Source of the DNA: Escherichia phage vB_EcoP_PAS59
Reading direction: 5' to 3' (one strand)
Sequence record: OQ921332.1
Length of the DNA: 64,000 bases
This document shows, piece by piece, positions 11,871 to 54,812 of this stretch. The position numbers and the translations under genes were made by a program. The notes under the pieces were generated by a model. The model saw only the letters and a list, made by a program, of their open reading frames with translations. It was not told the origin of the DNA and searched no databases. The first letter of the stretch is position 1. The number at the start of each line of letters is the position of its first letter.

Positions 11871-11878
11871 GGGTATTT

Positions 11879-31309: not shown

Positions 31310-31801
31310 ATGAATAATATTGACCCGTCAATAAAAGAAGCTCTTGATTACGACCCTTTGACTGGAGATTTCCGATGGGTTAAAACTTATGGAAAAGGAC
31401 ACAAAGGGTCTATAGCTGGTTCTGTAAATACCAATGGGTATTTGAGAATCGTTTATAAAGGTGCTAGATACTACGCTCATCGACTTGCTTACTGGTGGGA
31501 CACTGGATTGCTTCCTGAAGAAGTAGATCACATAGACCGCAACAGGATAAACAACAAAAGAGAGAATCTTAGGGGGACTACTAGATCAGGAAATGGCCTA
31601 AACAAAGTAGCTCAGAGTAATAATTTATCAACCGGAGTGATTGGAGTGACTGTCCATAGAAGGAAAAGTGGCTCTATTGCTTACCGGGCGGTATTTAAAT
31701 CTAAGCACATAGGACTCTTCTCAACCATAGAAGAAGCCTCTAGGGAATATAATAAAGTCAAGGAGACTTACATAAATGACAATCAAAGCTTCATTAATTG
31801 A
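31310..31801 (+). CDS. HNH homing endonuclease (HNH + AP2-like)
   Basis: ORF track; AHRLAYWWDTGLLPEEVDHIDRNRINNKRENLR; paralogous to 42242, 45226, 46618; overlaps ThyX start. Confidence 0.7.
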   Translation: MNNIDPSIKEALDYDPLTGDFRWVKTYGKGHKGSIAGSVNTNGYLRIVYKGARYYAHRLAYWWDTGLLPEEVDHIDRNRINNKRENLRGTTRSGNGLNKVAQSNNLSTGVIGVTVHRRKSGSIAYRAVFKSKHIGLFSTIEEASREYNKVKETYINDNQSFIN

Positions 31802-32423
31802 TAACTTCGGTTCAGATCTTACAGTAGTCAATGCTGCTCGTGTAACTATGGGGGTAGAAAGGGAAGAATTAAAAGAAAGTGACACTCGTCTAATAAATTT
31901 TCTAGCTCGGGAACGGCACGTAAGTCCTTTTCGTCACCCACAAGCGAGCTTCAGATGCGAAGCTCCTATAGCAATTGCACGACAGTTACAGAAGCATCAA
32001 GTTGGTTTTTCTTGGAACGAGATGAGTCGTAGATATAAAGATGGAGCAGTGGATATTTTCATACCTAAAGAAATCTTCTCCCGTCCAGATGATCTACATT
32101 CTGGTTCTGGAATACTTCTTGAAGGGGAGGAAGAGGCAAAAGCTTTAGCTTTGTTTAACTCTGCGTACGAGGCATCTCTTGCTAGTTATGACGAATTGAT
32201 TAAGTTCGTAGCTCCTGAACAAGCTAGATTTGTTTTACCTCAAGGTATGGTAACTACTTGGTACTGGACTGGTAGCTTGTATGGCTGGTTTGAATTGTGT
32301 CGTCAACGACTATCATCCCATGCTCAATATGAAGTTCGACTATTTGCTCAGTCATTAGATGAAGAGATGGCTAAACTCTATCCAATCTCATGGGCAGCTT
32401 TGAAGAAAACTTTGGAGAGTTAA
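31776..32423 (+). CDS. thyX: flavin-dependent thymidylate synthase (ThyX-like)
   Basis: ORF track; RBS AAGGAGA; RHPQASFR and RLSSHAQYEVR motifs. Confidence 0.6.
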   Translation: MTIKASLIDNFGSDLTVVNAARVTMGVEREELKESDTRLINFLARERHVSPFRHPQASFRCEAPIAIARQLQKHQVGFSWNEMSRRYKDGAVDIFIPKEIFSRPDDLHSGSGILLEGEEEAKALALFNSAYEASLASYDELIKFVAPEQARFVLPQGMVTTWYWTGSLYGWFELCRQRLSSHAQYEVRLFAQSLDEEMAKLYPISWAALKKTLES

Positions 32424-32568
32424 TTTTGGAAGAAAACGATGATGATGTTTTCTGTACACGGTGCGGTATGACAGTTGATGATGCTTACGACCCTACAGTA
32501 GAGATTTGTCCTTGCTGCGGAGTTTGTGAGTATTGTTGTAGTCACAATTCAGATGAATAGGTAAAACT

Positions 32569-32754
32569 GTGGACTTATACAAAACATGTAGCTTCTGTCA
32601 AAAGCAGAAGCTTCTTATCAACTTCAAGCTGAACGAGGAAACAGGTTTGGGTCATGCTTTTTGTCATGATTGCAGACACTACCTTGAACAGAAACAATAT
32701 ATAAACTGGTTGCATTATTTCAACCCCAGCATCTACGAGCACAAGGTTATCTAA
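32569..32754 (+). CDS. small Cys/His zinc-finger-like protein
   Basis: ORF track. Confidence 0.35.
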   Translation: MDLYKTCSFCQKQKLLINFKLNEETGLGHAFCHDCRHYLEQKQYINWLHYFNPSIYEHKVI

Positions 32755-33075
32755 ATGATCAACGATAGTACATTTAGGACTGGTAACGGAAATGAAATCA
32801 GTCCTGCTGAAGTGATTAAACGACACAGAACACAGATGCTTATCCACTCCTATTTGTATTATTGGTTGGATGACCCAATCTGGTCTGACGATAAGTGGCA
32901 ACAAGTGGCTGATGACTTAACCACCTTGCAAGAGATGTATCCTGAGCCTATTGGATTCTTCGATTCAGAGTTCAATGGATGGAATGGCTCCACTGGTATG
33001 CATCTTCCTCATGACGAGCGTATAGCTTGTATGGCTACTGAAGTATACCGTTTACATAAGGACAAATCAATCTGA
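32755..33075 (+). CDS. hypothetical protein
   Basis: ORF track. Confidence 0.45.
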   Translation: MINDSTFRTGNGNEISPAEVIKRHRTQMLIHSYLYYWLDDPIWSDDKWQQVADDLTTLQEMYPEPIGFFDSEFNGWNGSTGMHLPHDERIACMATEVYRLHKDKSI

Positions 33076-33257
33076 AATGTTTTAAATGTGAATCAACTCT
33101 TCTCCATTTGGACTCGAAAGTAATACGGGAGCTTGCCAAAGGCTCCCCGACTAAAGGGAAGAATAAGAAGTTTGTCGAAATTAAGGTTATAGGTATCCAT
33201 TGCTCAGAGTGTAAATCCTGTAGCTTCTTATATGAAGAACACGGAGGTAGGAAATGA
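33072..33257 (+). CDS. candidate zinc-ribbon protein with no canonical start codon (CTG 33072 or ATC 33066 proposed)
   Basis: open frame 33060-33257 encodes CFKC...CSECKSC; stop overlaps the PhoH ATG; AAGGA 9 nt upstream of CTG. Confidence 0.3.
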   Translation: MKCFKCESTLLHLDSKVIRELAKGSPTKGKNKKFVEIKVIGIHCSECKSCSFLYEEHGGRK

Positions 33258-33991
33258 GTCGTAGAGAATCTCGGAAAGCATCACGGAGAGAATTACGTCG
33301 TGAAGCTCTCGTCACCAAGAAAGGAAAGCGGGAATTTGAAGAAGTAGTTCTTGCTAAGCCGGTAGTACCTCAGAACCAATTCCAGAGTGAGCTGCTTGAT
33401 GCAATTAAAACCAAACAGGTTGTATTCACAGATGCTCCTGCTGGCTGTGGTAAGACATTCGTAATCACTTCTACAGTGATCGATGCTCTGAAGAGTGGGA
33501 AGATTGAGAAGATTATCCTAAGCCGACCTGCTGTTGGTATGGGTAACAGTCTAGGATTACTTCCCGGTGGGCTTCGTGAGAAATTTGAACCATACCTGAT
33601 GCCAATTGTTGATGTTATCACTCAGCGTTATGGTAAAGGCTTCTATGAGTGTCAAATTGGTAATGGTAACATTGAGTTTGTACCTCTGGAATACCTCCGT
33701 GGCCGTTCATTCAACGATGCTATTGTGATTGTTGATGAGTTCCAGAATACCACTCCTGATGAAGCATATTCAATTATGACTCGTCTTGGTGAAACCTCTC
33801 AGATGTTCTGTATGGGGGACACCAATCAGCACGATATGCGTGGTGAGAGTGGTCTAGATTGGGCTACTGATTTCATATACCGTCACAAATTGTTTGAATT
33901 TGCCGCTCTAGTAGATGGTGAATCGGATGATATTGTTCGTTCAGGTTTCTGTAAAGCTATTGTCAAAGCAATGGAATCTGAAAAATCATAA
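33254..33991 (+). CDS. phoH: PhoH-like ATPase
   Basis: ORF track; Walker A AGCGKTF; Walker B VIVDEFQN. Confidence 0.8.
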   Translation: MSRRESRKASRRELRREALVTKKGKREFEEVVLAKPVVPQNQFQSELLDAIKTKQVVFTDAPAGCGKTFVITSTVIDALKSGKIEKIILSRPAVGMGNSLGLLPGGLREKFEPYLMPIVDVITQRYGKGFYECQIGNGNIEFVPLEYLRGRSFNDAIVIVDEFQNTTPDEAYSIMTRLGETSQMFCMGDTNQHDMRGESGLDWATDFIYRHKLFEFAALVDGESDDIVRSGFCKAIVKAMESEKS

Positions 33992-33993
33992 AC

Positions 33994-34004
33994 ATAATGT
34001 ATAC
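33994..34004 (+). promoter_or_regulatory. candidate phage-sigma promoter motif ATAATGTATAC
   Basis: member of the recurring TAATGTATA motif set; ~32 nt upstream of ATG 34036. Confidence 0.4.
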
Positions 34005-34035
34005 TCCTTAGTGTACACTGATATATTAAGGAGTT

Positions 34036-34353
34036 ATGATGACCGATAAGGCGAAAAGAGATTATGCACAAGAACGAAGAACTGCAATCAAACGTGGGGA
34101 GACAGGTGTTGGTAGCAAGAGCGGAGATGCTCAGCGCCACCGTGCACGTCGCATCGTTGAAAAACGCGATGGAAAAGCTGCTGTCCGAGGTAAAGATGTT
34201 GGACACAAACGATCAATCAAGTCGGGAGGTTCTAATGCGTCAAGTAACTTACGTGTTGAATCAGTCTCTCGAAATCGCTCGAACGGCGGCAAAAGTGGAG
34301 ATCGTGCTGGAAAATCAGCAGGCGGTCGCAAAGGAGCTTTAAGCTCAAGCTAA
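34036..34353 (+). CDS. highly basic Lys/Arg/Gly/Ser-rich protein (an alternative helical ORF exists in another frame, 34064..34342)
   Basis: ORF track; RBS AAGGAG before ATG 34036. Confidence 0.4.
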   Translation: MMTDKAKRDYAQERRTAIKRGETGVGSKSGDAQRHRARRIVEKRDGKAAVRGKDVGHKRSIKSGGSNASSNLRVESVSRNRSNGGKSGDRAGKSAGGRKGALSSS

Positions 34354-34357
34354 TATA

Positions 34358-34388
34358 AGGCTACCCATTTCGGGTGGCCTTTTCTTTT
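34358..34388 (+). terminator. rho-independent terminator
   Basis: AGGCTACCC-loop-GGGTGGCCT followed by TTTTCTTTT. Confidence 0.6.
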
Positions 34389-34409
34389 ATGTAACCTAAG
34401 GTAATAAAT

Positions 34410-34661
34410 ATGTCTAAAGTAACTTATATCACTGTAACTGATTTCCTTCCTTCTCTGAACACAACTGAGAGTTATACTTTTCCTGTAGAAAATGTTACAA
34501 GCTCTGTTGAGATGATTCAGTTTAACAAAACAACAGCTCGTACTAATGTAACCCTTCGTGGCCCTGATGGCAAGTTCATCTCCTTCCGTGATAAGGGTGT
34601 TCCTAAGCGTATTGCTAAATCTATTGAAAATCTGAAACCTTTCCCCAACTTTGGTGCATAA
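34410..34661 (+). CDS. small protein (tandem paralog 1; KTARTNV...NLKPFP family)
   Basis: ORF track. Confidence 0.45.
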   Translation: MSKVTYITVTDFLPSLNTTESYTFPVENVTSSVEMIQFNKTTARTNVTLRGPDGKFISFRDKGVPKRIAKSIENLKPFPNFGA

Positions 34662-34662
34662 T

Positions 34663-34920
34663 ATGAAGATTAGCTTAATCCAAATTCGTGATCATCTCTT
34701 TAATGGTGACGCTCAGACTCATGACTACAAGGTTAATCAAGGACAACACCCTACCAATCACCTGATTGGAGGGATTTCTTTATTGCCTAATAAAACAGCA
34801 CGGACTAATGTAATGATTCGTGGTAAGGATGGTAAATTCCTCTCTTATCGTGACCCTGAAATCTGTGCTATTGTTCGTACAGCCATGAACAACCTAAAAC
34901 CATTCCCGACAGTGGAGTAA
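34663..34920 (+). CDS. small protein (tandem paralog 2)
   Basis: internal ATG of ORF track 34651..34920. Confidence 0.45.
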   Translation: MKISLIQIRDHLFNGDAQTHDYKVNQGQHPTNHLIGGISLLPNKTARTNVMIRGKDGKFLSYRDPEICAIVRTAMNNLKPFPTVE

Positions 34921-34923
34921 GTT

Positions 34924-35274
34924 ATGCCAGTACCTCAACGCCTAGAACGTCACTGCGTTCTCAAATGGGACAATATTCATGACAACCTCTCTAGTCAAGA
35001 GTTTCGTCAGTTTATTGAATTGACAGCGAAGATTAACCGAAACCGACCAGCTCGAAATTATGTGGTGGTTAGTGACAAGTATCCAGAGCTGTATGAGCAG
35101 GTGTGGGGTATGAAACTTGCACAAGTTCAGAGGAACAGTAACGAACGGAGAGAAGCTCGTAGACAGAGAGCAGAAGATATTCCAGCAGTCTTTTATGTGG
35201 ATGAAGCGGAATCCTACGAACAGTTAGATATTGTTGAGGATAACCAAGCGTTCACTGATTTAATATACCGATAA
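34924..35274 (+). CDS. hypothetical protein
   Basis: ORF track. Confidence 0.45.
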   Translation: MPVPQRLERHCVLKWDNIHDNLSSQEFRQFIELTAKINRNRPARNYVVVSDKYPELYEQVWGMKLAQVQRNSNERREARRQRAEDIPAVFYVDEAESYEQLDIVEDNQAFTDLIYR

Positions 35275-35290
35275 CTATAAGGAGTGGGTG

Positions 35291-37012
35291 ATGGATAACC
35301 CTGATAAGTTACCTTTCATAACGGAGATGACAGTCGCTGATATAATCTCAAAACAGGCGAAGCATGGAGTCAACTTCAACAGAAGAAACGCTCGGTGGTT
35401 TGTTCATCTTCTCAAAGAGATTATTGTCAATATTGATAAAGAACTGATTCCTCTCCTCCCCAAAATGCGGGTGGATGGTTCAACTTATTCTAAACCTTTT
35501 AAGAAATCAGGTGCTTTACAGAAGTGGCCTCAGCTCTATTGCGATAGGGTTGGTCTTAAAAGAGAAGATATCGGTGGGGCGTTTACTTGCGTTGAGTATG
35601 TAGATTTTGACCCATCAAAAGATGCACGTATTAAAGAAGCCTTGATGGATGAAGGTTTTATACCTCCAGAGTGGAATTATTCTAAGAAACCTTGGAATAC
35701 TTTTGAAATTCGTAAAGCTATGAAGAAGTATGGTACATACTCTGCATGGTATTCTGCTTGGATTCGAGGTAACGCTAAAGAGAAACAGACAGCAGAGATG
35801 ATAGATGCTGATATCCGAAGGTTTTTGGATAAGCACTTCCGTTATCACACTGTCAATTATATGAAAGCCTATGTCAGCGGTTTAGGTCTTAACCCTAACA
35901 GGAAGAAGCCTGTAACCTTTGATGAAATCAAAAAAGCTTTGGCTACATCAAACAAGTGGCCTACAGCCCCTACAAACCTTGAGGAGACTCTTGAAGAGGG
36001 GCTTGGGGGTGAACTAGGGGGTGTAGGAAGTTTGCTTAAGAGACGCGTTGTAGCGGCTCACAGGCTAGGTTTGATTAGCGGGCTTATCGACAAGGAACGT
36101 AAAGATGGTAAACTGTCCGCCGAAGCTAATAGCTGCGCTACTCCGACATTTCGTTTTAAACATCGCATTGTTGTTAATATTCCTTCTCGCGGTTTGTTTG
36201 GTCACGAGTGCCGCAGTCTTTTTCAATCTGACTATTCCTCAGACGATAGTCATAACCATCCTTTCATCATTACCAACCATATCCCTGATGGGTGTTACGT
36301 ACGAAAGGGTACTAACATTATCTACGAAATGGGAAAACCGGGCAAGAAAGACAAACCAATAGGTGCTTATAAATTTTATGTACCTGCTGGTCGTGAAGTC
36401 TTCTTAGGTTATGATGGCTCTGGTCTTGAGCTGAGGATGCTTGCTCATTACCTTATCAAAGAGTGTCGTGAGATGCTCGCTGAAGCAGAGCGGGAAAACA
36501 ACCCAGCTAAGAAACGGGAAGCTGAACGCGGTCTAGCTTCTGCTGTTATGTACAGAGATATTCTTTTAGAAGGGGATATTCACTCACATAACCAAAAACT
36601 TGCTGGCCTTCCTACTCGTGATAATGCTAAAACGTTTATCTACGCATTCAACTACGGAGCTGGTGACGCTAAGTTAGGAAGCATCGTAGGTGGTGGCTCT
36701 GATGAAGGGGCTGTCATGAGGGCAAGATTCTTAGCAGAGAATCCTTGTATTGCAATTCTTATTGAACGTATGACAGAGAAAGCACAAAGTGGATACATCT
36801 ACGGTGTGGATGGACGTCGTATTACAATGAGGAGGGATGCAACTGGAAAGGTTATGGTTCATAAAGCCTTAAACACCCTCTTACAGAGCGCTGGGGCGAT
36901 TGTTATGAAGTATGCAATGCTATTCCTTAATAAATGGATTGAGCGTGATGGTGTTCGTTGTGCGAAGGTTATTGACATGCATAAACTTCATTGTGCATGT
37001 AAAAGTTGGTGA
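35291..37012 (+). CDS. family-A DNA polymerase, polymerase domain (separate ORF, ~8.3 kb downstream of the exonuclease ORF)
   Basis: ORF track 35288..37012; motif A GYDGSGLELRMLAHY; motif B RDNAKTFIYAFNYGAG; NTLLQSAGA; collinear with T7 gp5 from about residue 200. Confidence 0.85.
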   Translation: MDNPDKLPFITEMTVADIISKQAKHGVNFNRRNARWFVHLLKEIIVNIDKELIPLLPKMRVDGSTYSKPFKKSGALQKWPQLYCDRVGLKREDIGGAFTCVEYVDFDPSKDARIKEALMDEGFIPPEWNYSKKPWNTFEIRKAMKKYGTYSAWYSAWIRGNAKEKQTAEMIDADIRRFLDKHFRYHTVNYMKAYVSGLGLNPNRKKPVTFDEIKKALATSNKWPTAPTNLEETLEEGLGGELGGVGSLLKRRVVAAHRLGLISGLIDKERKDGKLSAEANSCATPTFRFKHRIVVNIPSRGLFGHECRSLFQSDYSSDDSHNHPFIITNHIPDGCYVRKGTNIIYEMGKPGKKDKPIGAYKFYVPAGREVFLGYDGSGLELRMLAHYLIKECREMLAEAERENNPAKKREAERGLASAVMYRDILLEGDIHSHNQKLAGLPTRDNAKTFIYAFNYGAGDAKLGSIVGGGSDEGAVMRARFLAENPCIAILIERMTEKAQSGYIYGVDGRRITMRRDATGKVMVHKALNTLLQSAGAIVMKYAMLFLNKWIERDGVRCAKVIDMHKLHCACKSW

Positions 37013-37073
37013 ACTCGGTGAAACCCGACCATTAAGTTGAGGGCAATACCGAGCTAAGCTATTAGGAGGTGAT

Positions 37074-37469
37074 ATGGCTAAGAAAGATCTAGTGTTAGAA
37101 ACTACTGACACAGGATGTATCATCCCTATCTCACACAAACTTAATAAAGATGGTTACTTCAGAAAGGTAATAGATGGCAAATGGGTCATGTATCACCGAT
37201 ACGTCATGGAAGAAAAGTTTGGAAAGATTCCTGATGGGTTTGAAGTAAACCATAAATGCAAGAACAGAGCTTGCTGTAACACAGACCACCTAGAGATTCT
37301 ATGGGGGAGTGCTCATGCAATAGAATCCAATACAGGTAGAAACAGAGAAAGACAGGAAGCTGCTAAAGAATTCTGGCTTAATAATGAATGTACCGGTGTT
37401 GCTCTTGCGGAAAGATTTGGTGTGAGCTTTGGAATCGCTTGTAGATGGATTCGAAAGTGGAAAGTGTAG
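37074..37469 (+). CDS. HNH homing endonuclease inserted in the DNA polymerase gene
   Basis: ORF track; RBS AGGAGG; EVNHKCKNRACCNTDHLEILWGSAHAIESNTG. Confidence 0.75.
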   Translation: MAKKDLVLETTDTGCIIPISHKLNKDGYFRKVIDGKWVMYHRYVMEEKFGKIPDGFEVNHKCKNRACCNTDHLEILWGSAHAIESNTGRNRERQEAAKEFWLNNECTGVALAERFGVSFGIACRWIRKWKV

Positions 37470-37586
37470 AGACTATCCTTTGGGAGTAGGGGGTTAACAG
37501 GGAAACCCTCGAAGCGCCAACAACAGCAAATTAGCTATGCTGTTATGATATAGTCCGATACCCGAAGTAATTTGGGAATAACATAA

Positions 37587-37742
37587 ATGGATGAAGGTCA
37601 GTTCACTGTACATCGTGATGATGTTAACAAACTTCGTACCCTCACTGAAGAGTGTGTTCGTAAAGCAGGAGAGTACCTCAAGATGGAATGTCCTCTGGCA
37701 TCTGATTGCAAAATTGGATTAAACTGGAATCACACCCACTAA
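37587..37742 (+). CDS. DNA polymerase C-terminal segment (51 codons), separate mini-ORF or 3' exon
   Basis: translation MDEGQFTVHRDDVNKLRTLTEE...CKIGLNWNHTH aligns with the T7 gp5 C-terminus (...GKMGPNWAICH); in-frame TAA immediately precedes the ATG. Confidence 0.5.
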   Translation: MDEGQFTVHRDDVNKLRTLTEECVRKAGEYLKMECPLASDCKIGLNWNHTH

Positions 37743-37759
37743 TTTGTAGTGGAGGAATA

Positions 37760-37951
37760 ATGACTAGACATGTACATGAAACATGGGCCATTACGGGAGC
37801 AAAAGATGCAATTGTTTGCTGTAATGGACATTTCTGCATCTATAACACAGAAAGAAAAGCTATTCAAGAAGCGGCTGAGTTAATGGAAGAGTTTCCTGAT
37901 AAAGATTTCTCCATTAAGAATTTAACCATCAATCTCCCGTGGAAGAGCTGA
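37760..37951 (+). CDS. hypothetical small protein
   Basis: internal ATG of ORF track 37706..37951 behind GGAGG. Confidence 0.35.
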   Translation: MTRHVHETWAITGAKDAIVCCNGHFCIYNTERKAIQEAAELMEEFPDKDFSIKNLTINLPWKS

Positions 37952-38306
37952 ATCGTATTACGAAATGAACTAGTCTTATTGATTAGTTCTTTTTAAGGAG
38001 ACAAGGAAGTGGAAGAAGTAAAAAGTTCTGAATGGTGCTTGAAGCAACAAAAACTCGCACAGGAAGAAGGACGTTTTGATGATGCCAAAGTGTATGGGGA
38101 GCTTTTCCGTACATGGGTTGAACGAGAGGAGAAAGATCAATGATGGATTTGATTCGTAAACCTGCTCCAAAATGGAATGTATATTTCCAAGATGCTACAG
38201 GAAAATTTCACAACCAACTGGTTTATTCTGACGAAGAACGCGATGAAGTCGCTGCTCAGATTAAAGCAGGCGGTGGTACAGTTCTCAAAATTTATGAAAG
38301 GGAGTA

Positions 38307-38552: not shown

Positions 38553-38576
38553 GCTACCTTCGGGTGGCTTTTCTTG
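38552..38576 (+). terminator. rho-independent terminator
   Basis: AGCTACC-ttcg-GGTGGCT followed by TTTTCTT. Confidence 0.55.
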
Positions 38577-38590
38577 TCTAAGAGGCTAGT

Positions 38591-41912: not shown

Positions 41913-42254
41913 ATGGAAAAGCTTCAAAACAATATAGGTTTTTTAATCTTCACAGCTCTGGTTTTCTTTGGTGGTGTCAAGTTTGAGCAATACAGAAGTG
42001 ATAGTAATGCTCTTGACCATGAGAAGAAACAGCAAGAGATTGAGGTTGAGAGAGCTAAGGCTGCTGATGAAGTGGCTCAGAAAGTTCTGACTGGTTTATC
42101 TAACTGGAAGAAGAACACGGAAACTATTTACAAAGAGATGCATTATGAAAAGACTAAGCCAGTTTTTTACAATGTGTGTGCTAGTGATGAGTATGTAGGA
42201 CTTTTCAATGAACGACAGCAACAAGCAGCGGAGGCACTGAAATTAAAGAATTAG
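41913..42254 (+). CDS. i-spanin-like protein (N-terminal TM helix plus periplasmic coiled coil), putative
   Basis: internal ATG of ORF track 41889..42254; its C-terminal GLFNERQQQAA is repeated at protein level at 42743-42775. Confidence 0.4.
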   Translation: MEKLQNNIGFLIFTALVFFGGVKFEQYRSDSNALDHEKKQQEIEVERAKAADEVAQKVLTGLSNWKKNTETIYKEMHYEKTKPVFYNVCASDEYVGLFNERQQQAAEALKLKN

Positions 42255-42736
42255 TTAAATATCTATCTTACAATGAGGTTTCTGGTCTTCTCTGCTGGAA
42301 ACAGTCTGAGGATAAGAGCGCTCAGTGGAATTCAAGATTCGCTGGAAAGGTGGCAGGTTGTAAAGCCACAGATGGCTATACAGTGATTACCTATCAATAT
42401 AAACAGTACAAAGCTCATAGAATTGCTTGGTATATCAAAACTGGAGAGATTCCTGATTTTCAAATAGACCATAAAGATTTAGACAAATCTAATAATTCTT
42501 GGAGCAATCTAAGAAGAGCAACACCTGTCCTTAATAATGCCAACAAAATAGTTCAAAAGAACTCTTTAACTGGAATAAAAGGTGTAGGGTACAGGTCGGA
42601 TATTAACAAATGGAGTGCTCGCATCGGATATCAAAACAAAGTAATTTGGCTTGGTTATCACAGCACTCAAGATGGTGCAGAAAATGCTTACAAAGAAAAA
42701 GCAAAAGAGTTGTTTGGTGATTTTTCTCGCTTCTAG
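42242..42736 (+). CDS. HNH homing endonuclease; start proposed at ATT 42242
   Basis: ORF track gives 42350..42736, but the conserved N-terminal region (KELVKYLSYNEVSGLLCWK, aligning with LKRLLKYDPNSGQFTWK of 45226) lies upstream in frame with no ATG/GTG/TTG; GGAGG 7 nt before the ATT. Confidence 0.55.
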   Translation: MKELVKYLSYNEVSGLLCWKQSEDKSAQWNSRFAGKVAGCKATDGYTVITYQYKQYKAHRIAWYIKTGEIPDFQIDHKDLDKSNNSWSNLRRATPVLNNANKIVQKNSLTGIKGVGYRSDINKWSARIGYQNKVIWLGYHSTQDGAENAYKEKAKELFGDFSRF

Positions 42737-42950
42737 TTTGATGGCTTGTTCAACGAGCGACAACAGCAGGCAGCTAATGCCCTTACCAACAAACCTAAAA
42801 GCTGAATGTGATGTAGACCTCCCTTTACTTCAGAGTGGACAGGGAGTAGCACTTGCAACAACACTCGAGTGGTATCAGGACAATTATACAACCTGTGCCG
42901 CTAACCACAACGGTTTGCTTAAAGCTCTCAAGGAGAGAGGAATACAATGA
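42672..42950 (+). CDS. o-spanin-like lipoprotein, putative
   Basis: internal ATG of ORF track 42651..42950; KKKQK n-region, hydrophobic core, LMAC lipobox-like site; overlaps the remnant i-spanin 3' end in another frame. Confidence 0.4.
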   Translation: MVQKMLTKKKQKSCLVIFLASSLMACSTSDNSRQLMPLPTNLKAECDVDLPLLQSGQGVALATTLEWYQDNYTTCAANHNGLLKALKERGIQ

Positions 42951-43846: not shown

Positions 43847-44442
43847 TGAGTAAACCTTTAGTAGTAATCCTAAATGGACCTCCGGGTTGTGGTAAAGATA
43901 CAATCGCTAATGCTTGGTTAGAGAAGACAGCTGGTAACACTGAGTTTAGACCGCATGTAAAGGCTTTTAAGGAGCCTATGTATCGGGTGGCTGCTGCTGC
44001 ATTAGGTCTCCCTCTTTATGAGTTCATGGAGCTGTACAACGACCGTGAGTGGAAAGAACTTGTCCGTCCTGAATGGGGAGGTAAGTCAGTTCGAGATTTG
44101 ATGATTGCAACTAGCGAGAATTATCTGAAGCCTATGTTTGGTGAGACCTGCATGGGTAAACTTGCTGTTAGCAGTATCCAACAACATATCCCATCACAGA
44201 ATGATGTTATCGTCTTCTCTGATGGTGGTTTTAGAGCAGAAGTTGAAGAACTAGAGAGACACTTCCATGTTCGAGTAGTTCAGGTTCTCCGCGATGGCTG
44301 CTCCTTTGAAGGAGACTCCCGTTCTTATATTGAAGGAACAAACCTACCAACCTACCTCCTCTTTAATGACCGTTCTGTAGAAGAGGCAGTTGAGGATTTA
44401 GAGTGGATTATTGAAGGGACACGGAGAGATCTCTATGTCTGA
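43846..44442 (+). CDS. P-loop nucleotide kinase (dNMP kinase-like)
   Basis: ORF track; Walker A ILNGPPGCGKDT. Confidence 0.55.
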   Translation: MSKPLVVILNGPPGCGKDTIANAWLEKTAGNTEFRPHVKAFKEPMYRVAAAALGLPLYEFMELYNDREWKELVRPEWGGKSVRDLMIATSENYLKPMFGETCMGKLAVSSIQQHIPSQNDVIVFSDGGFRAEVEELERHFHVRVVQVLRDGCSFEGDSRSYIEGTNLPTYLLFNDRSVEEAVEDLEWIIEGTRRDLYV

Positions 44443-45253
44443 TGTAATCTATCCTGAAGTGGCAATTGTGGATGCAGATGTTCTACGATATGAAGTCGGT
44501 GCTCTTACACAAGAGCATCCTTTTCTAGACACAGGTCGTGTTCCAGTTGATTATGGATTCTTGATTGAACGACTTCAACATAAAATAGATGTAATCATTG
44601 CAAGGTCTGGTTGCGAGAAAACAATCTTTTACTTCAGCGAAGGTGGTAATTTTCGGTTTGATATTGCTAAGCAGCAAGGCTATAAAGCTAATCGACCACC
44701 GGGAGAAAGACCTCACCACTGGCAAAATGTCAGTGATTACATTAAAGAGAATTACGAATACGTAGAAGTTTTTGGGAGAGAGGCGGATGATGCCCTAGCT
44801 GAAAGACAGAGACGTGATAAGAACACTATCATTTGCACCCGTGATAAAGATTTGTTAATCACTCCCGGATGGCATTACCGTTGGGCTTGCGGGGAGAGAC
44901 AGAAAGAAGTACCTCCTCACTATGTATCAGAGGAAGTAGCATGGCAGAACTTCTTCTACCAGATGCTGATCGGGGATAGCACAGATAACATTCCCGGATG
45001 CGGTGAGAAGGTTGAAATGATGTGGGGTGGCAATCTAGTAATGCGTCGTAAAGGCATTGGTAGTAAGGCTGCAATCAAACTTATTGAGAAGGTATTCGAT
45101 AAGTGGACTCTTTATCATATTATACGAATGGAATACTATAAAAGGTTCGAGGAAGAAGCAGAAGCTAAGATGTTAGAAAATGCTCGATTGCTCTTCGTTG
45201 GACAAGCTGAAGGTGACCTCTTTGATTGGTCATGGTTAAACAAGGAATGGTGA
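44435..45253 (+). CDS. 5'-3' exonuclease (T7 gp6-like)
   Basis: internal ATG of ORF track 44411..45253; GYKANRP, CTRDKDLL, IGDSTDNIPG align with T7 gp6 motifs as recalled. Confidence 0.65.
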   Translation: MSDVIYPEVAIVDADVLRYEVGALTQEHPFLDTGRVPVDYGFLIERLQHKIDVIIARSGCEKTIFYFSEGGNFRFDIAKQQGYKANRPPGERPHHWQNVSDYIKENYEYVEVFGREADDALAERQRRDKNTIICTRDKDLLITPGWHYRWACGERQKEVPPHYVSEEVAWQNFFYQMLIGDSTDNIPGCGEKVEMMWGGNLVMRRKGIGSKAAIKLIEKVFDKWTLYHIIRMEYYKRFEEEAEAKMLENARLLFVGQAEGDLFDWSWLNKEW

Positions 45254-45741
45254 TCTTGGATAGAGAAGAGTTAAAAAGGCTTCTCAAGTATGATCCAAAT
45301 AGTGGTCAGTTTACTTGGAAAGTTAAGAAAGGTAGGAAGAATGTTGGAGATGCGGCTGGATGCTTTTATGGAAAACATAGATACCGCTGCATCAAGTTAA
45401 ATCAAATATTGTATCAATCTCATAGACTTGCATACCTTTACATGGAAGGTTACATTCCTGATTGTGTAGACCACATAGACGGAGACCCTTCTAATAACAA
45501 GTGGTGCAATCTAAGAGAAGCAACTTTAAGTCAGAATCAGTGGAACAGAAAGATCTCTATAAACTGCACTTCCGGAATCAAGGGAGTCTCTTTCCATAAA
45601 AGAGCTAATAAGTGGAGAGCTATTATTGGAGTGTCTGGGAAATCTATCCATCTAGGGTATTATGCAACTAAAGAAGAGGCTGAAGAAGCCCTGAGACTGA
45701 AAAGAGAAGACCTACACTTAGGCTTTCATCGTCACAAATAA
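45226..45741 (+). CDS. HNH homing endonuclease (HNH + AP2-like)
   Basis: ORF track; SHRLAYLYMEGYIPDCVDHIDGDPSNNKWCNLR. Confidence 0.7.
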   Translation: MVMVKQGMVILDREELKRLLKYDPNSGQFTWKVKKGRKNVGDAAGCFYGKHRYRCIKLNQILYQSHRLAYLYMEGYIPDCVDHIDGDPSNNKWCNLREATLSQNQWNRKISINCTSGIKGVSFHKRANKWRAIIGVSGKSIHLGYYATKEEAEEALRLKREDLHLGFHRHK

Positions 45742-45764: not shown

Positions 45765-45956
45765 ATGGGTAAATTTGACTATCGTTCGTATGATGAAAAC
45801 TTCTCTACTCGCGAATCTCGTAAAGATCAAAAGATTAAGCACCAAGCATTTGATCGTCGCACAGGTCGTATCCCTCGTGCTGATAAAGAATCACACCGAG
45901 TCAATAAACGCATTTGGGAAGACGCTGATATGGATGTAGGTTATGGCGAAAGCTGA
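45765..45956 (+). CDS. hypothetical small protein
   Basis: ORF track. Confidence 0.4.
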   Translation: MGKFDYRSYDENFSTRESRKDQKIKHQAFDRRTGRIPRADKESHRVNKRIWEDADMDVGYGES

Positions 45957-46347
45957 GAAGACAAGATGCTCTGGTCAGTGGACTGAAGCACGTTATAACT
46001 CCTTCATTAAGTCAGGGATTCGTTCTCTGACTAGGAAATGGAAACCTATGTTTGATTCTCTCAAAGAGGCTCAGACAGAACGTAAAATCAACCCTAAAAC
46101 TGGCAAACTGGCAATGCACTATAAGTGTGCTATGTGTGGTAATGATTCTCCTCTTAAAGACGTAGCAGTAGACCATATAGAGCCTATTGTTCCAGTGGAC
46201 CATGAAGCTACTTGGGATGAAATCATCGAGAGGGCTTTAGTTGAGAAAGATGGTTTTCAAGTCTTATGCAAAGAGCCTTGCCATAAGATAAAAACTAAGG
46301 AAGAGAATGATGCAAGACGTGAATTTAAAAAATCTAGAGACTCCTGA
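45943..46347 (+). CDS. HNH-family nuclease, putative
   Basis: ORF track; CAMCGNDSPLKDVAVDHIEPIV ... LCKEPCH. Confidence 0.5.
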   Translation: MAKAEKTRCSGQWTEARYNSFIKSGIRSLTRKWKPMFDSLKEAQTERKINPKTGKLAMHYKCAMCGNDSPLKDVAVDHIEPIVPVDHEATWDEIIERALVEKDGFQVLCKEPCHKIKTKEENDARREFKKSRDS

Positions 46348-46609: not shown

Positions 46610-46617
46610 GAGGTCTT

Positions 46618-47121
46618 ATGAATGAAGAGAAGTGGACCCATTTTCTATACTCCTCTGAATCTCCTTCTGGATTTCTCTGGAGGAGTAAACCAGCCCCTTT
46701 TGTAAAAATAGGAAGCGTGGTAGGTACGAAAAACAAGAAAGGTTATTGGGAAATCAACACCAAAAACTCTGGAAGAATTAAAGCTCATCGGTTGGTTTGG
46801 GAGTACCATAATGGACCTATCCCAGAAGGGTTTTTGGTAGACCACATAGATAATAACCTAGACAACAATACAATAGAAAATCTTAGACTTTGTAATGCGA
46901 AGGAAAGTGCTAGGAATACTAGAGGTTGGAGCAGTAAAAGAGATTCTTTACCTAAAGGTATTCATGACAACTCTCATGGAGGAAAGAATCCGGGATACTA
47001 CCAAGCTCGAATTTACATATCAGGTAAATCTTACACGAAATCTTCATACGATATCTTATATTTACACAGATGGCTTAAGAGTAAAAGAGAGGAACATCAT
47101 GGAGAGTTTAAAAAAGATTGA
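46618..47121 (+). CDS. HNH homing endonuclease
   Basis: ORF track; AHRLVWEYHNGPIPEGFLVDHIDNNLDNNTIENLR. Confidence 0.65.
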   Translation: MNEEKWTHFLYSSESPSGFLWRSKPAPFVKIGSVVGTKNKKGYWEINTKNSGRIKAHRLVWEYHNGPIPEGFLVDHIDNNLDNNTIENLRLCNAKESARNTRGWSSKRDSLPKGIHDNSHGGKNPGYYQARIYISGKSYTKSSYDILYLHRWLKSKREEHHGEFKKD

Positions 47122-47155
47122 TGAATTCGATGGATTCTAACATCTAGAAATAAAG

Positions 47156-47190
47156 AAGCCCCCTTCCTTTTCAGGTTGGGGGCTTTTCTC
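47156..47190. terminator. bidirectional rho-independent terminator between convergent transcription units
   Basis: AAGCCCCC-loop-GGGGGCTT with T-rich tracts on both strands. Confidence 0.6.
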
Positions 47191-47193
47191 GTT

Positions 47194-53377: not shown

Positions 53378-53391
53378 AATTATTCTCCTAA

Positions 53392-54363
53392 TTAAGAGCT
53401 AGCTAAGCCACCGATAACACCGCCAGCTAAAGCACCCCAAGGGCCAAAAGCTGAACCAGCAGCAGCACCACTCGCAGCACCGCCTAGGAAGCCTCCACTA
53501 CCACCAGATGTTTTAGTAGTTGTGGTTGTTCCCAAAGCCCCGTTAAGAACCCCGGCAGCACCTAGTTGATTGTTAATATCCTGCCAACCCCAATTAGCAG
53601 CATTCTGAGCATTCTCATAAGCATTGTTCAAATCAGACTGCTGTTGTTGCTGCTGTTGCAGTCCTGCATTCCACTGATTCATCATTTGCTGTTGTGATAG
53701 CTGACCAGCTTGGTTTCCTAGATTAGCAAGGTTGGAGCCAATGTTAGATAAACCACCTAAAGCAGATGCTTGTGTTTGTCTATTACCAGAAAGAATGTTC
53801 TGTGCTTGAGTTAGAGCAGAGTCATAGGCACTATTAGTAATATTAGTTGCTGTGTTCTGCATCTGGTTCAGAGCATCACCCTGAGCAAAAGATTTAGCCA
53901 TACGTGCACCAGAACCTTGCTGACCAGCAAACTGCTGAGAGATTTGAGGAAGTGCATTCCTAGCCAAACTCTGTTGGGTTTGTTCATTATTCGCTGCAAT
54001 AGCTGCTTGCACAGCCTCGTCGTCATAGAGCTGGCCTGCAAGAGCCCCAATCTGTTCTCCAGTGATTTGACCAGAGTTTGCAAGGTTGTTATATCCAGAG
54101 TATGTGTTATCTAGATACCCTAAACCAGATTGAGCAGCATCCATGTATTGAGAAGAAAGTGCACCTAATGCACCAGATTGTGATAGGTTGTTCAGAGCCT
54201 CTTGCTGGTTTTGATTAAGTCCAACATTTTCTCGATACACATAATCGCCTGAACTAGTGTTATTAACCTGATTGACCAGCTGATCAATATAGGATTGAAT
54301 GTAGTCAGGTCTTGTCATTTTAGAAGTAGTCTTGCTACTCCCACCACCAAATAAACCTGCCAT
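53392..54363 (-). CDS. Gln/Asn/Gly-rich structural protein (paralog of 54822..55874)
   Basis: ORF track; shared LFG..S.KTT N-terminus and Q/N-rich repeats. Confidence 0.5.
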   Translation of the reverse strand: MAGLFGGGSSKTTSKMTRPDYIQSYIDQLVNQVNNTSSGDYVYRENVGLNQNQQEALNNLSQSGALGALSSQYMDAAQSGLGYLDNTYSGYNNLANSGQITGEQIGALAGQLYDDEAVQAAIAANNEQTQQSLARNALPQISQQFAGQQGSGARMAKSFAQGDALNQMQNTATNITNSAYDSALTQAQNILSGNRQTQASALGGLSNIGSNLANLGNQAGQLSQQQMMNQWNAGLQQQQQQQSDLNNAYENAQNAANWGWQDINNQLGAAGVLNGALGTTTTTKTSGGSGGFLGGAASGAAAGSAFGPWGALAGGVIGGLASS

Positions 54364-54812
54364 TATTTACCTCCTCGCAGATATTTAATTGCATTTTCTA
54401 GGTTTTCTGGTGAATCTTTAAAAAGACCTAAACCAGTGTTACAACTAGAACACAGCAAACCTCTAATGTGAAGACCTTCATGACAATGATCGACAGCAAG
54501 TCTCTTAACAACCCCTTTCAGGGTTGCTGTCTCTGGTTGACCACAGATTGCACAAAGTCCTTCTTGCTTTTCAAACAGTGCATCATATTCTGCAAGAGTT
54601 ATTCCATAAAGTCTTCTCAGGTTTCGGTCTGTTATATTCTCAACAGGTTCACCATAGAGTTTTTTATAGTATGACGGACTGGTTGTTTCTAAACCAGAGC
54701 TTTTGAGTTTTCTTTTTTCTTTCTCTCTCTGGCGGCTAGCCAGATATTTAGATACATCCCTATAACCTTTCTTACGAGCAGCAGCTATAGTGGATTCTGA
54801 GTATTCTTCCAT
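54363..54812 (-). CDS. HNH endonuclease (endonuclease VII-like) between two paralogous structural genes
   Basis: ORF track; CAICGQPE...LAVDHCHEGLHIRGLLCSSCNTGLGLF. Confidence 0.7.
   Translation of the reverse strand: MEEYSESTIAAARKKGYRDVSKYLASRQREKEKRKLKSSGLETTSPSYYKKLYGEPVENITDRNLRRLYGITLAEYDALFEKQEGLCAICGQPETATLKGVVKRLAVDHCHEGLHIRGLLCSSCNTGLGLFKDSPENLENAIKYLRGGK

Follow-up and report, generated by a model that had tools for sequence, protein, structure and literature searches.

The 64,000-nt stretch of Escherichia phage vB_EcoP_PAS59 DNA analysed here (OQ921332.1; "the window") is from a Gordonclarkvirinae podovirus of E. coli (Suseptimavirus/Kuravirus-like, phiEco32/Kuravirus group), with Bas86 (96.7%) and SU7 as its nearest relatives. 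Taken as a whole, it is probably best explained as a genome that has gathered six mobile His-Me-finger nuclease elements in addition to one core HNH gene. The elements belong to already known kinds, and the window would be a clear but ordinary case of homing endonucleases turning related phage genomes mosaic.

Nuclease Genes and Their Distribution Among Relatives

A sequence-only reading of the window had listed seven HNH endonuclease genes, and all seven ORFs are found there, named here by their leftmost positions. As that reading had placed them, 31310 overlaps the start of thyX by 26 nt, 37074 is within PolA, 42242 is between the i- and o-spanin genes, 45226, 45943 and 46618 are 3' of the exonuclease gene, and 54363 separates two paralogous genes. 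The classification needs amending: five are HNH_3 (PF13392) and 45943 is probably a divergent classical HNH, but 54363 is Endonuclease VII-type, of the same His-Me superfamily as the HNH proteins and of a separate family. The description of several sites as conserved targets fits only the polymerase, whose insertion interrupts motif C (H|DE), a catalytic target under strong conservation; elsewhere the cassettes sit at gene boundaries, namely at the 5' end of one gene, the 3' end of another, in an overlap and at an operon end.

The endonuclease-free alleles that had been suggested as a check are provided by approximately 100 sequenced relatives, with base-exact junctions, for six of the seven genes. 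These six are accessory cassettes, present or absent at fixed sites; among close relatives, each of the five HNH_3 genes is present or absent at one fixed genomic site. The pattern is reciprocal, Bas86 having endonuclease genes that are missing from the window. Because the six cassettes coincide with synteny breaks and local identity anomalies, the genome is mosaic around them, as had been proposed.

Families and Catalytic Residues

The HNH_3 domain is matched by 31310, 37074, 42242, 45226 and 46618 at 40.1-66.4 bits (Pfam; cut-off 24.8). The proposal that four of these (31310, 42242, 45226, 46618) are paralogs is borne out by phmmer E-values of 1e-8 to 1e-27 and by phrog_99 as the best PHROG match of each; no further members of the seven genes' families were found within the window. 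Their description as an "HNH-AP2-like family" holds for HNH_3 in all four and, more loosely, for AP2 in two: 42242 (25.1 bits) and 45226 (30.5 bits) fall below the Pfam cut-off of 33.3 bits for AP2 (PF00847), and 31310 and 46618 have no match to it. A weak precomputed AP2 match is also present in a 99% identical homologue of 45226, and the AP2 resemblance of 42242 and 45226 is real, if sub-threshold.

Loss of the HNH catalytic residues had been named as what would count against the sequence-only reading. All five HNH_3 proteins retain the catalytic His (D/N-H) without exception, and every nuclease ORF is full length against its own family profile. The metal-binding Asn/His at +9 after NL (HL in 37074) is kept by 31310, 37074, 42242 and 45226; 46618 has Ser in place of the metal-binding Asn at this position, that of I-HmuI N96. 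The structural position is Asn in the HNH_3 proteins, but His in 37074.

A Group I Intron Within the Gene for DNA Polymerase

The "HNH inside the DNA polymerase" is where it was said to be, not as a bare gene insertion but as an ORF carried by a group I intron between the H and D of the PolA motif C "HDE". PolA exon 1 (35288..36982, plus strand, as are all intron features below) ends ...VIDMH with last base T, which in Bas86, Bas87, EK010 and SU10 joins 37590 onward without a gap; exon 2 (37590..37742) begins DEGQF... by comparison with uninterrupted alleles. The intervening 607 nt (36983..37589; Rfam, fold, covariation) are IA2-like, with the ORF in the P6 region. Excision of 36983-37589 would yield ...VIDMH|DEGQF..., the same as Bas86, with the reading frame restored.

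Expected features are present: P1 with its U.G pair (exon 36975-36982 with IGS 36993-37000), P10 (36986-36991 with 37591-37596), a P3-P9 core in which P3 and P7 form a pseudoknot, and a G as the last base (omega-G, 37589). The core comprises P3 (37005-37011 with 37515-37521), P4 (37014-37019 with 37048-37053), P5 (37024-37026 with 37041-37043), P7 (37471-37475 with 37551-37555), P7.1 (37476-37485), P7.2 (37499-37509), P8 (37523-37543) and P9 (37561-37576). A local search matched Rfam Intron_gpI (RF00028) at 30.9 bits (E=5.9e-6), including the GAUAUAGUCC core; this is below the gathering score of 50, and the whole-window gathering search gave no match. The core is split by a 396-nt ORF. The MFE fold recovers P1, P3, P4, P5, P8 and P9.

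Covariation was assessed in seven sequences of four lineages, the Kuravirus-like, T7-like, Vibrio and Edwardsiella phage introns; the core being invariant within the Kuravirus-like introns, the covariation comes from no more than these four. P1, P10 and P3 covary, the latter two with exon sequences: 94.5% of cells are paired with 14 compensatory pairs, matched by none of 500 shuffles; the P1 U.G pair at the 5' splice site is invariant (7/7 sequences); and P3 is 100% paired, with compensatory changes in five of its seven pairs. Conservation is 96-100% in the non-coding intron parts, 77-88% in the ORF and 71-95% in the exons, and the intron and exon similarity patterns conflict, a sign of recent transfer. 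The intron was found in 10 of 35 matching records.

The intron-encoded HNH_3 endonuclease (37074..37469; Pfam, tblastn) has an HTH-like C-terminal tail. Over all 131 aa it is 55-60% identical (tblastn) to ORFs in the "DNA polymerase I (join)" of 13a and Bas102-104, and it is a full-length homologue of the intron ORFs in T7-like phage gene 5. In the proposed model, the intron would splice from the mRNA, restoring the polymerase, and in a co-infection the I-TslI-like HNH protein would make nicks or cuts in polymerase alleles that lack the intron, with repair copying the intron in.

Separation of the Spanin Genes

The HNH_3-AP2 gene at 42242..42736 (Pfam, PHROG; all features of this locus are on the plus strand) lies between Rz and Rz1 and is free-standing, having turned overlapping Rz/Rz1 into separate genes. 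The architecture is two-component and separated, with an i-spanin bearing an N-terminal TMD and an o-spanin bearing a lipobox Cys encoded by separate genes. Separation came about through a duplicated and recoded Rz 3' end and a newly supplied o-spanin signal peptide. The i-spanin gene (Rz, 41913..42254) closes with a recoded copy of its ancestral 3' end, which takes up the last ~17 codons (from 42204); within the upstream copy (42204..42237; junction comparison), LFNERQQQAAEA is kept in the Rz frame and the Rz1 frame is destroyed. EK010 has a similar Rz C-terminal peptide in different codons. The original copy lies downstream (42749..42782; junction comparison), and is now coding sequence of Rz1 only. 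The o-spanin gene (Rz1, 42684..42950; lipobox LMAC) begins with a new signal peptide, MLTKKKQKSCLVIFLASSLMAC, for which the 3' end of the HNH gene is read in a different frame; from the lipobox Cys on, the mature part is ancestral and nearly identical to that of ECBP2. The SU7 spanin locus is annotated with the same o-spanin arrangement.

The 42242 ORF lacks a canonical start codon (ATT), the first ATG, GTG or TTG being a GTG at 42350; it may start at the AUU, 7 nt past GGAGG. The gene is present in 8 of 98 matching records. A further sign of recent transfer is that it is 99% identical to its SU7 counterpart but 88% to that of Bas86, though Bas86 is otherwise closer.

Cassettes at the thyX and Exonuclease Genes

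At the 5' end of thyX, a free-standing "type A" HNH_3 gene (31310..31801, plus strand; Pfam, PHROG matches) with an AP2-like C-terminus starts on the RBS, ATG and second codon that are thyX's in the empty allele (junction with SU10). The thyX gene itself, allele A (31776..32423, plus strand; junction comparison with SU10), has a new RBS (AAGGAG) and ATG within the 3' end of the HNH gene, and the two occur together in 8 of 95 matching records. The three thyX alleles have 52-98% nt identity per 60-nt window in genomes otherwise >90% identical, and the site has been used recurrently, by two HNH types that are 41% identical.

The 3' end of the 5'-3' exonuclease gene (44411..45253, plus strand; junction comparison) contains the free-standing HNH_3-AP2 gene at 45226..45741 (plus strand; Pfam, junction), the insert spanning 45239-45737. 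The last five exonuclease codons (45239-45253, NKEW*) are a recoded replacement of DKTW*, and a remnant of the original 3' end persists at 45737-45751. The nuclease gene probably starts at ATG 45232 or 45247 rather than at 45226. It is absent from this site in all 104 matching phage records; a metagenome contig encodes a 99% identical protein at the same site. Metagenome contig L023 has a 45226-type gene without 46618, which suggests independent assortment of the two.

The 46618 cassette (46618..47121, plus strand; Pfam, junction) is at the end of the rightward operon, just 5' of a GC-rich hairpin between convergent operons (47156..47187), annotated as a bidirectional terminator in SU7. It was found only in Bas89 (1 of 28 matching records), to which it is 98-100% identical at the nt level with flanks at 72-89%. 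This identity island shows very recent lateral transfer of at least one element.

Between these two cassettes, 45943 (45943..46347, plus strand; phrog_3106, family profile) is a core-genome protein, probably a classical HNH (CxxC...DH...CxxxCH). The protein itself has no Pfam match at E<=0.1, including to classical HNH PF01844, a domain present in many homologues; its PHROG match is phrog_3106 "HNH endonuclease" (2e-37), and its family profile matches the solved GVE2 phage HNH 5H0M (E=1.9e-5). C62, C65, D77, H78, C109, C113 and H114 are invariant, and the structural Asn is replaced by Gly in its clade. Its inclusion among mobile homing genes does not stand: the gene is at its site in all seven relatives examined (six fetched relatives and Bas89) and its identity tracks that of its flanks, and it is therefore a vertically inherited core gene. 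By analogy with terminase-associated HNH proteins, its function may be related to packaging or DNA processing; the label "terminase small subunit" in some records is doubted (PMC9965538).

An Endonuclease VII-Type Gene Between Ejection Protein Genes

The minus-strand gene at 54363..54812 (Pfam Endonuclease_7, junction) matches Endonuclease_7 PF02945 at 87.6 bits (Pfam; cut-off 23.6). It keeps D-H-x-H...R...N, and VDHCH...RGLLCSSCN aligns to Hpy99I and T4 endo VII; the motif takes up residues 63-146 of 149, in the C-terminal half. Among solved structures, the restriction enzyme Hpy99I matches best (3e-9), with T4 endo VII at 0.19; among phage genes, those of gp13.5 type in T7-like phages are closest. 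Two ejection/internal virion protein paralogues with 30% identity (E=3e-12) flank it on the same strand, at 53392..54363 (downstream; junction, paralogue comparison) and 54822..55874 (upstream; paralogue comparison). The nuclease gene starts on the RBS and ATG that had served the downstream gene, for which it provides replacements, the downstream start being remodelled at the insertion (MAGLFGG vs MALFGG). At the DNA level it is absent from all 27 matching records and from six fetched genomes, and is thus dispensable for growth. A metagenome contig encodes an identical protein at the same site, and myPSH1131 has a 45% identical homologue at the same ejection-gene junction: two Endo VII types at one site.

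A Proposed Homing Model

In the model proposed here, 31310, 42242, 45226 and 46618 (HNH_3(-AP2)) and 54363 (Endo VII-type) would be free-standing homing cassettes that sit at gene boundaries and fit into the host operon by taking the RBS/start of the downstream gene or overlapping the upstream stop. They would re-supply what they displaced, be it the RBS and ATG, the C-terminus (in recoded form) or the signal peptide of the lipoprotein, so that neighbouring genes could stay functional while the sequence beside the insertion departs from that of the empty allele. This change may make the carrier immune to its own nuclease, as the T4 seg and mob genes suggest by analogy. Spread would occur when the nuclease cuts the empty allele of a relative infecting the same cell and the break is mended by recombination, co-converting the flanks and producing mosaic blocks. 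Active homing, which the sequence-only reading had taken the density of these genes to imply, is an inference from sequence, and 46618 lacks the canonical metal-binding Asn. No co-conversion tract is visible at 45226 or 54363, because their flanks are 97-99% identical to empty alleles; these two could have arrived by ordinary recombination.

Alternative Explanations

The polymerase and spanin insertions can each be read the other way around. The polymerase might be truly split, with no splicing and with a 574-aa N-fragment and a 50-aa C-fragment (MDEGQF...) assembling into an enzyme: the SU7 and ECBP2 records show it so, each with a pair of "DNA polymerase" CDS, the SU7 record also gives the C-fragment an RBS, an in-frame stop occurs 30 nt past the junction, and all five Kuravirus-type copies compared keep an ATG whose end falls exactly on the 3' junction. 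Petrov and Karam have reportedly described T4-like phages with split PolB genes that work as two subunits. The chance of this is nevertheless slight: the break would fall between residues of the catalytic HDE triad, conservation is lacking in the peptide that follows exon 1, which a 1-nt indel shifts to another frame in SU7 and ECBP2, and the non-coding segments, better conserved than ORF or exons, form a complete group I core with P1, P10 and P3 covarying with exon sequence; the records of 13a and Bas102 treat their homologous element as lying in a joined gene. Conversely, the spanin insertion might be an intron in Rz, as the Bas86 and Bas87 records imply by annotating Rz as a two-piece join around the HNH gene; joining the downstream copy (42749-42805) would restore the ancestral C-terminus ...NALTNKPKS. 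This is very unlikely, since a 700-nt search found no group I signal at the insertion even at E<=10, the upstream copy is in frame with its own stop and keeps the Rz peptide by synonymous recoding (in EK010 likewise, with other codons), and the downstream copy is required as o-spanin coding sequence with the new signal peptide. In T5-like phages, moreover, overlapped spanins have been separated by a free-standing homing endonuclease gene (PMC6139136).

Other alternatives concern what the cassettes do. If they were relics or domesticated genes that no longer home, their patchiness arising from ordinary recombination and loss, they would be kept for some present function, e.g., keeping out competing phages, repairing DNA or breaking down the host's DNA. 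The missing metal-binding Asn of 46618, the missing canonical start of 42242 and the unseen co-conversion tracts around 45226 and 54363 fit this, and 45943 shows that an HNH gene can be fixed in the clade. It is unlikely, however, given full-length ORFs with intact catalytic His residues, an identity island that coincides exactly with one cassette and links otherwise divergent genomes, cassette similarities at odds with genome similarity, and divergent alleles occupying the same sites. For 54363 alone, a role as a Holliday-junction resolvase or debranching enzyme like T4 gp49, accessory to replication or packaging, is improbable. Endo VII-family proteins can be junction resolvases too, and both the Pfam match and the catalytic D-H-H-R-N in common with T4 endo VII would suit one; its absence from so many relatives, its precise gene-junction placement with a homologue at the same junction in myPSH1131, its closer match to Hpy99I and its gp13.5-type kin all argue against such a role. 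The C-terminal motif is also the arrangement of the "endonuclease clade" of Endo VII-motif homing endonucleases, as opposed to the resolvase clade (PMC6083498).

Comparison with Known Systems

The HNH_3 core of the window proteins (DH...N...N) is that of I-HmuI/I-HmuII/I-BasI of the Bacillus phage SPO1 group and of free-standing HNH-AP2 endonucleases (PHROG 99), with a predicted AP2-like C-terminal DNA-binding module in 42242 and 45226 as in the latter; 46618 aligns to the I-HmuI structure 1U3E (E=6e-4), with Ser at the Asn96 position. I-HmuI is encoded in an intron at another PolA site (674) and has NUMOD/HTH modules, whereas four of the five window HNH_3 genes are free-standing at gene boundaries. 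The core gene 45943 has CxxC...DH...CxxCH in common with the zinc-ribbon HNH terminase partners GVE2 HNHE (PDB 5H0M) and HK97 gp74 and, like them, is fixed and non-mobile; unlike them, it is not adjacent to terminase genes and its clade has Gly for the structural Asn.

"Intronless homing" by T4 seg and mob products (SegF, SegG, MobE) was reportedly described by Belle et al. in 2002 and Liu et al. in 2003. As in that system, the window has free-standing endonuclease genes that lie at the ends of conserved genes or between them and vary in presence from relative to relative, with local sequence differences adjoining the insertions. The T4 seg genes encode GIY-YIG and the mob genes HNH enzymes of another subfamily, and thus differ in nuclease type from the window cassettes.

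For the polymerase intron, Bonocora and Shub are said to have described, in 2004, group I (IA2) introns with HNH ORFs (I-TslI) in the PolA genes of PhiI and W31. These introns, also annotated in 13a and Bas102-104, are inserted as in the window between the motif C H and D (site 881 in E. coli Pol I numbering; PMC3428280), and have an ORF in the P6 region of 131 aa, 55-60% identical to the window's, within a homologous ribozyme core that includes GAUAUAGUCC, P7.1/P7.2 and P9 with an AGUAAU loop. The window intron differs in that its polymerase belongs to another phage family, Gordonclarkvirinae, its IGS, P10 and P3 have been adjusted to match the exon sequence around them, and it has a shorter P7.2 and a longer P5. 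Annotation differs as well, with two polymerase fragments in Kuravirus-type relatives and an intron or joined gene in 13a and Bas102-104.

The F-CphI/"DHHRN" Endo VII-motif homing endonucleases resemble 54363 in being free-standing and in having a C-terminal motif with D, H, H, R and N (PMC6083498); 54363 differs from these systems in having no intron link and an activity that is predicted only. Its location among internal-virion/ejection protein genes is like that of phiYeO3-12 gene 13.5, although it is only 43-54% identical to T7-like gp13.5-type genes and lies in a different host gene cluster.

The closest parallel for the spanin locus is in the T5-like phages Shivani and phiR201, where the Rz/Rz1 overlap is split by a GIY-YIG endonuclease gene (Kongari et al., 2018; PMC6139136). 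There as here, change in the i-spanin is confined to the very C-terminus and, in the o-spanin, to the signal sequence of the lipoprotein; the window nuclease, unlike theirs, is HNH_3-AP2, and in the window the duplicated, recoded 34-nt segment and the second-frame signal peptide are resolved at base level.

Seven Nuclease Genes among Otherwise Collinear Relatives

All seven nuclease ORFs listed in the sequence-only reading of the vB_EcoP_PAS59 window were found, and protein searches across the window recovered no further members of these families. The description of all seven as HNH genes needs amending: five of the proteins (encoded at 31310, 37074, 42242, 45226, and 46618) match HNH_3 (PF13392, 40-66 bits), but the minus-strand gene at 54363 encodes an Endonuclease_7 protein (87.6 bits). 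None of the seven had a useful NCBIfam match. The proposed paralogy of 31310, 42242, 45226, and 46618 was borne out by mutual matches (E 1e-8 to 1e-27), and 42242 and 45226 have sub-threshold AP2 matches. The catalytic His is retained in every HNH_3 protein, but in 46618 (46618-47121) residue ~93 is Ser, versus the metal-binding Asn of the family and of I-HmuI (N96). The Endo VII-type protein retains D-H-x-H...R...N; its motif occupies residues 63-146 of 149, and its best solved match is Hpy99I.

Megablast of window positions 31000-48000 against 50,697 phage records gave 98 matching records, nearly all from Escherichia and Shigella phages in Gordonclarkvirinae (phiEco32/Kuravirus group), the nearest over this interval being Bas86 (96.7% identity, 86% coverage), SU7 (94.1%), and Bas87. 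Annotated stretches of Bas86, SU7, Bas87, EK010, ECBP2, and SU10 were compared with the window, which is collinear with all six save for short insertions and replacements. Blocks without a Bas86 counterpart (7752-7973, 8987-9289, 11143-12003, 12822-13076, and 39093-39489) are filled by small early genes with no HNH similarity, and the one tRNA gene (10110-10182, 73 bits) has a tRNA-Arg as its Bas86 equivalent.

Endonuclease-free alleles, the comparison suggested earlier, do exist in these relatives, with sharp BLAST breakpoints and base-level junctions yielding six empty/occupied site pairs. The earlier reading of this density as active homing is partly supported: six of the genes belong to apparent mobile elements, one of these being an intron, and the seventh, 45943, is a core gene. 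Only one of the several conserved targets that had been proposed, the polymerase site, is clearly conserved.

Site occupancy was counted by megablast of each element with ~400-nt flanks, as occupied over matching records; the counts are slightly inflated by RefSeq and GenBank duplicates. The polymerase intron is present in 10/35 records, the type A HNH gene at thyX in 8/95, the spanin HNH gene in 8/98, 46618 in 1/28 (Bas89), and 45226 and the Endo VII gene in 0/104 and 0/27, respectively. The pattern is reciprocal: Bas86 has two HNH genes that are missing in the window, one following PhoH and one within a “COOH.NH2 ligase” gene. The former lies at 15068-15448 of the fetched Bas86 stretch L001, and the window equivalent (~33992-34039) lacks it; the ligase gene is annotated as a join (1110-2418 of stretch L020), and window 17162-17176 is the empty site. 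Since a local Rfam search of the ligase insertion gave no group I signal, it may also be a free-standing cassette that was wrongly annotated as an intron.

Metagenomic sequences extend the record. An identical Endo VII protein occupies the same site in a metagenome assembly, on a contig 97.2% identical overall. Homology searching also reached a 45226-type protein, 99% identical and at the same site in the exonuclease gene, on a metagenome contig without 46618; the cassettes therefore assort independently. Exact-sequence look-ups gave no match for 45226 (two candidate starts) or 46618.

A Group I Intron That Interrupts the DNA Polymerase Gene

The insertion containing the ORF at 37074 (36983-37589, 607 nt) is missing from Bas86, Bas87, EK010, and SU10, where ...ATTGACATGCAT|GATGAAGG... 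is uninterrupted. It falls between the His and Asp of “VIDMH|DEGQF” in PolA motif C. In PhiI and W31 the introns occupy site 881 (E. coli numbering), with ORFs in P6a (PMC3428280); the comparison of site and structure rests on that paper and on the 13a and Bas102 sequences, among others. Run over the whole window with gathering scores, Rfam returned the tRNA only, and the intron surfaced solely in a local E-value search, as an Intron_gpI match at 37470-37577 with a GAUAUAGUCC core (30.9 bits, E=5.9e-6, below the gathering score).

The last base of exon 1 is U and the last base of the insert is G. In P1, exon ACAUGCAU pairs with GUGCAUGU, which lies 10 nt into the insert, leaving U.G at the splice site, and in P10 the CUUCAU just upstream of GUGCAUGU pairs with exon 2 AUGAAG. 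Folding of the ORF-deleted intron recovered P1, P3 (GUUGGUG/CGCCAAC), P4, P5, P8, and P9, and P7 (GACUA/UAGUC) crosses P3 as in the canonical pseudoknot. When seven ORF-deleted introns from four lineages were aligned, the proposed structure had 94.5% standard pairs, versus 29-50% with partners slid, and compensatory changes in 14 pairs, a level reached by 0/500 shuffles; P3 is fully paired with 5/7 pairs covarying, and P1 and P10 track the exon sequence of each host. P8 was excluded from the pair counts because MAFFT misaligned that of the mini-introns; by inspection, every lineage forms it. Across five Kuravirus-type copies, non-coding sequence is near-invariant, the ORF is variable, and a 1-nt indel shifts the reading frame after exon 1. 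Judged by its pairing and covariation, the polymerase insertion is a group I intron, and one that presumably splices.

Against Kuravirus phages 1-6af and N1203, identity is 98-100% in the ribozyme parts of the intron and only 71-80% in the exons; against SU7 and ECBP2, it is 96-97% and 90-95%, respectively. The ORF is 88% identical to that of the first pair and 77-79% to that of the second. Farther afield, the ORF is 55-60% identical over its full length to ORFs in the joined gene 5 of 13a and Bas102-104, a homology extending to many other T7-like phages, and it also matches an ORF adjoining the polymerase of Vibrio phage Vp_R1.

In several related Kuravirus-type records the polymerase is entered as two fragments, and a literature text search found no paper joining “Gordonclarkvirinae” with “intron”; recognition of the intron in this group is thus apparently new. 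What SU7, ECBP2, and similar records give as a “split DNA polymerase” would be more accurately annotated as an intron-containing gene. The KBNP1711 PolA gene is interrupted at a second, different site (381-1121 of stretch L009) by an element with a 150-aa ORF and its own Intron_gpI match (Rfam, 48.1 bits, E=1.6e-10), so Gordonclarkvirinae polymerases host at least two distinct group I introns.

Free-Standing Cassettes and Their Landing Sites

Local Rfam searches found no intron-like RNA around the thyX cassette or in the exonuclease/45943/46618 region. SU10 has thyX directly after the thioredoxin gene; the window HNH gene at 31310 starts with the RBS, ATG, and second codon that belong to thyX in SU10, and thyX has a replacement AAGGAG and ATG within the HNH 3' end. 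Three thyX alleles, 52-98% identical per 60-nt window, occur in otherwise very similar genomes, one with HNH type A, one with HNH type B (41% identical), and one with no HNH gene. At the thyX (31776-32423) 5' end, by the HNH site, each cross-allele comparison gives 52-59% in the first 60-nt window.

The Endo VII insert (54356-54808) behaves similarly, appropriating AAGGAGG and ATG from the ejection-protein gene downstream, to which it re-supplies GGAGG and ATG, so that the ejection protein starts MAGLFGG instead of MALFGG. The flanking genes are indeed paralogous, as had been noted (30% identical, E=3e-12). An intact, unannotated Endo VII-type ORF in the Kuravirus myPSH1131 (2486-2869 of stretch L022, 45% identical) lies between the same two paralogues, with the same RBS take-over and re-supply. 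Proteins with a C-terminal Endo VII motif fall in an endonuclease (homing/restriction) clade (PMC6083498).

At the exonuclease gene, the 45226 insert (45239-45737) begins 15 nt ahead of the stop and brings a recoded gene end, AACAAGGAATGGTGA (NKEW*), replacing GATAAAACTTGGTAA (DKTW*), of which a remnant persists at 45737-45751. Among the best phage matches to 45226 (43-47% aa) are FelixO1-like HNH genes, which likewise start within an exonuclease gene's 3' end; that exonuclease is only distantly related to the one in the window (24% identity, E=3e-4). With 44840-46140 as query, covering the exonuclease 3' end, the 45226 HNH gene, and the start of the core HNH gene, megablast gave weak matches in seven Vibrio phage records. 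The 46618 cassette sits between a conserved RBS and a conserved pre-terminator segment, a site holding an 88-aa gene in Bas86 and neither gene in SU7. Between the window and Bas89, 46618 shows 98-100% nt identity against 72-89% in the flanks, and the identity island coincides with the ORF; the gene is thus near-identical in two divergent phages despite the Ser at its metal-binding position.

The gene between these two cassettes, 45943, differs from them in its history. It has no Pfam match, but PHROG 3106 (“HNH endonuclease”) matches at 2e-37, and many homologues carry PF01844. A single-sequence PDB search found nothing; the family profile was needed to match the solved phage HNH protein 5H0M (E=1.9e-5). 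The structural Asn is replaced by Gly in the 45943 clade. The gene is in place in 6/6 fetched relatives, and its identity tracks that of its flanks, from 77% to 100%, in 7/7 relatives examined there; it is a core gene. The “terminase small subunit” label for this type of gene was doubted in a Kuravirus review (PMC9965538), and on sequence grounds the product at this position would be renamed a core HNH protein.

At the spanin locus, Rz1 (MKRLSQFFTMCVLAMNLSAC|STSDN...) in ECBP2 and SU10 lies within the 3' part of Rz, and in the window that part is present twice, on either side of the HNH gene at 42242. In the upstream copy (42204-42237), synonymous changes preserve LFNERQQQAAEA, the Rz peptide, which ends at a stop of its own, and the Rz1 frame is broken. 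The downstream copy (42749-42782), ancestral in sequence, codes for the mature o-spanin, for which a new signal peptide, MLTKKKQKSCLVIFLASSLMAC, is read from a second frame of the HNH 3' end. The SU7 annotation agrees with this arrangement, and a diverged EK010 version follows the same logic. Bas86 and Bas87 are annotated instead with a “joined” Rz, in which the nuclease gene would be removed as an intervening sequence. The recoded upstream copy, the repurposed downstream copy, and the lack of any group I signal in a local Rfam search make it more likely that these are two intact spanin genes around a nuclease gene, and the spanin insertion itself is best described as a free-standing gene. The spanin HNH gene is 99% identical to the SU7 copy and 88% to that of Bas86, although Bas86 is otherwise closer.

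The 42242 ORF has no canonical start codon. The 36 codons preceding GTG 42350 are conserved at the protein level and homologous to the N-termini of the paralogues, and an ATT at 42242 (ATC in EK010) follows GGAGG, a strong Shine-Dalgarno sequence, by 7 nt and precedes the Rz stop by 10 nt, an arrangement kept in five genomes. Near-cognate initiation at this AUU/AUC is probable. A programmed frameshift from Rz into the ORF was also considered; no slippery heptamer was seen by eye.

Nuclease Lineages, Host Genes, and Precedents

A more speculative and rather improbable possibility is that nuclease lineages track host-gene classes across unrelated phage families, with the free-standing cassettes bringing “repair kits”: a recoded end for the gene, a fresh RBS and ATG, and a replacement lipoprotein signal peptide in a second frame. 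In this view the conserved AUU/AUC start codon may throttle one cassette. PolA motif C holds an intron with an HNH gene in Autographiviridae, Gordonclarkvirinae, and one Vibrio phage; the nearest 45226 relatives (45% aa), in FelixO1-like phages, lie in the same host-gene class, at a distantly homologous exonuclease 3' end; and Endo VII-type genes occur among internal-virion or ejection protein genes in T7-like phages and here, the best matches to the 54363 protein being gp13.5-type genes between internal virion protein genes of T7-like phages. If true, each of these elements would act as a portable module, specific to one class of gene, that immunises its landing site as well as repairing it.

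Kuravirus-like phages are under development for therapy, and nuclease cassettes are the main source of gene-content differences among their otherwise collinear isolates. The six elements have base-exact empty/occupied pairs in growable phages (BASEL collection), and homing, marker exclusion, and target-site immunity are therefore directly testable.

Each component has precedents, and what appears new is the recognition of the intron in Gordonclarkvirinae, extending a known family. The seg and mob genes of T4 are free-standing endonuclease genes at gene boundaries; HNH-AP2 proteins, Endo VII-motif homing endonucleases, and PolA introns with HNH ORFs in PhiI, W31, SPO1, and Pf-WMP3 are also familiar. 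Within the group itself, homing endonuclease insertions were already described as exceptions to Gordonclarkvirinae synteny in the BASEL paper (PMC11990801), and four HNH domains were listed for phage YF01 (PMC9965538). The closest parallel for the spanin cassette is in T5-like phages, where overlapped spanin genes were likewise converted to separated ones, there by a GIY-YIG gene (PMC6139136) and here by the HNH gene at 42242.
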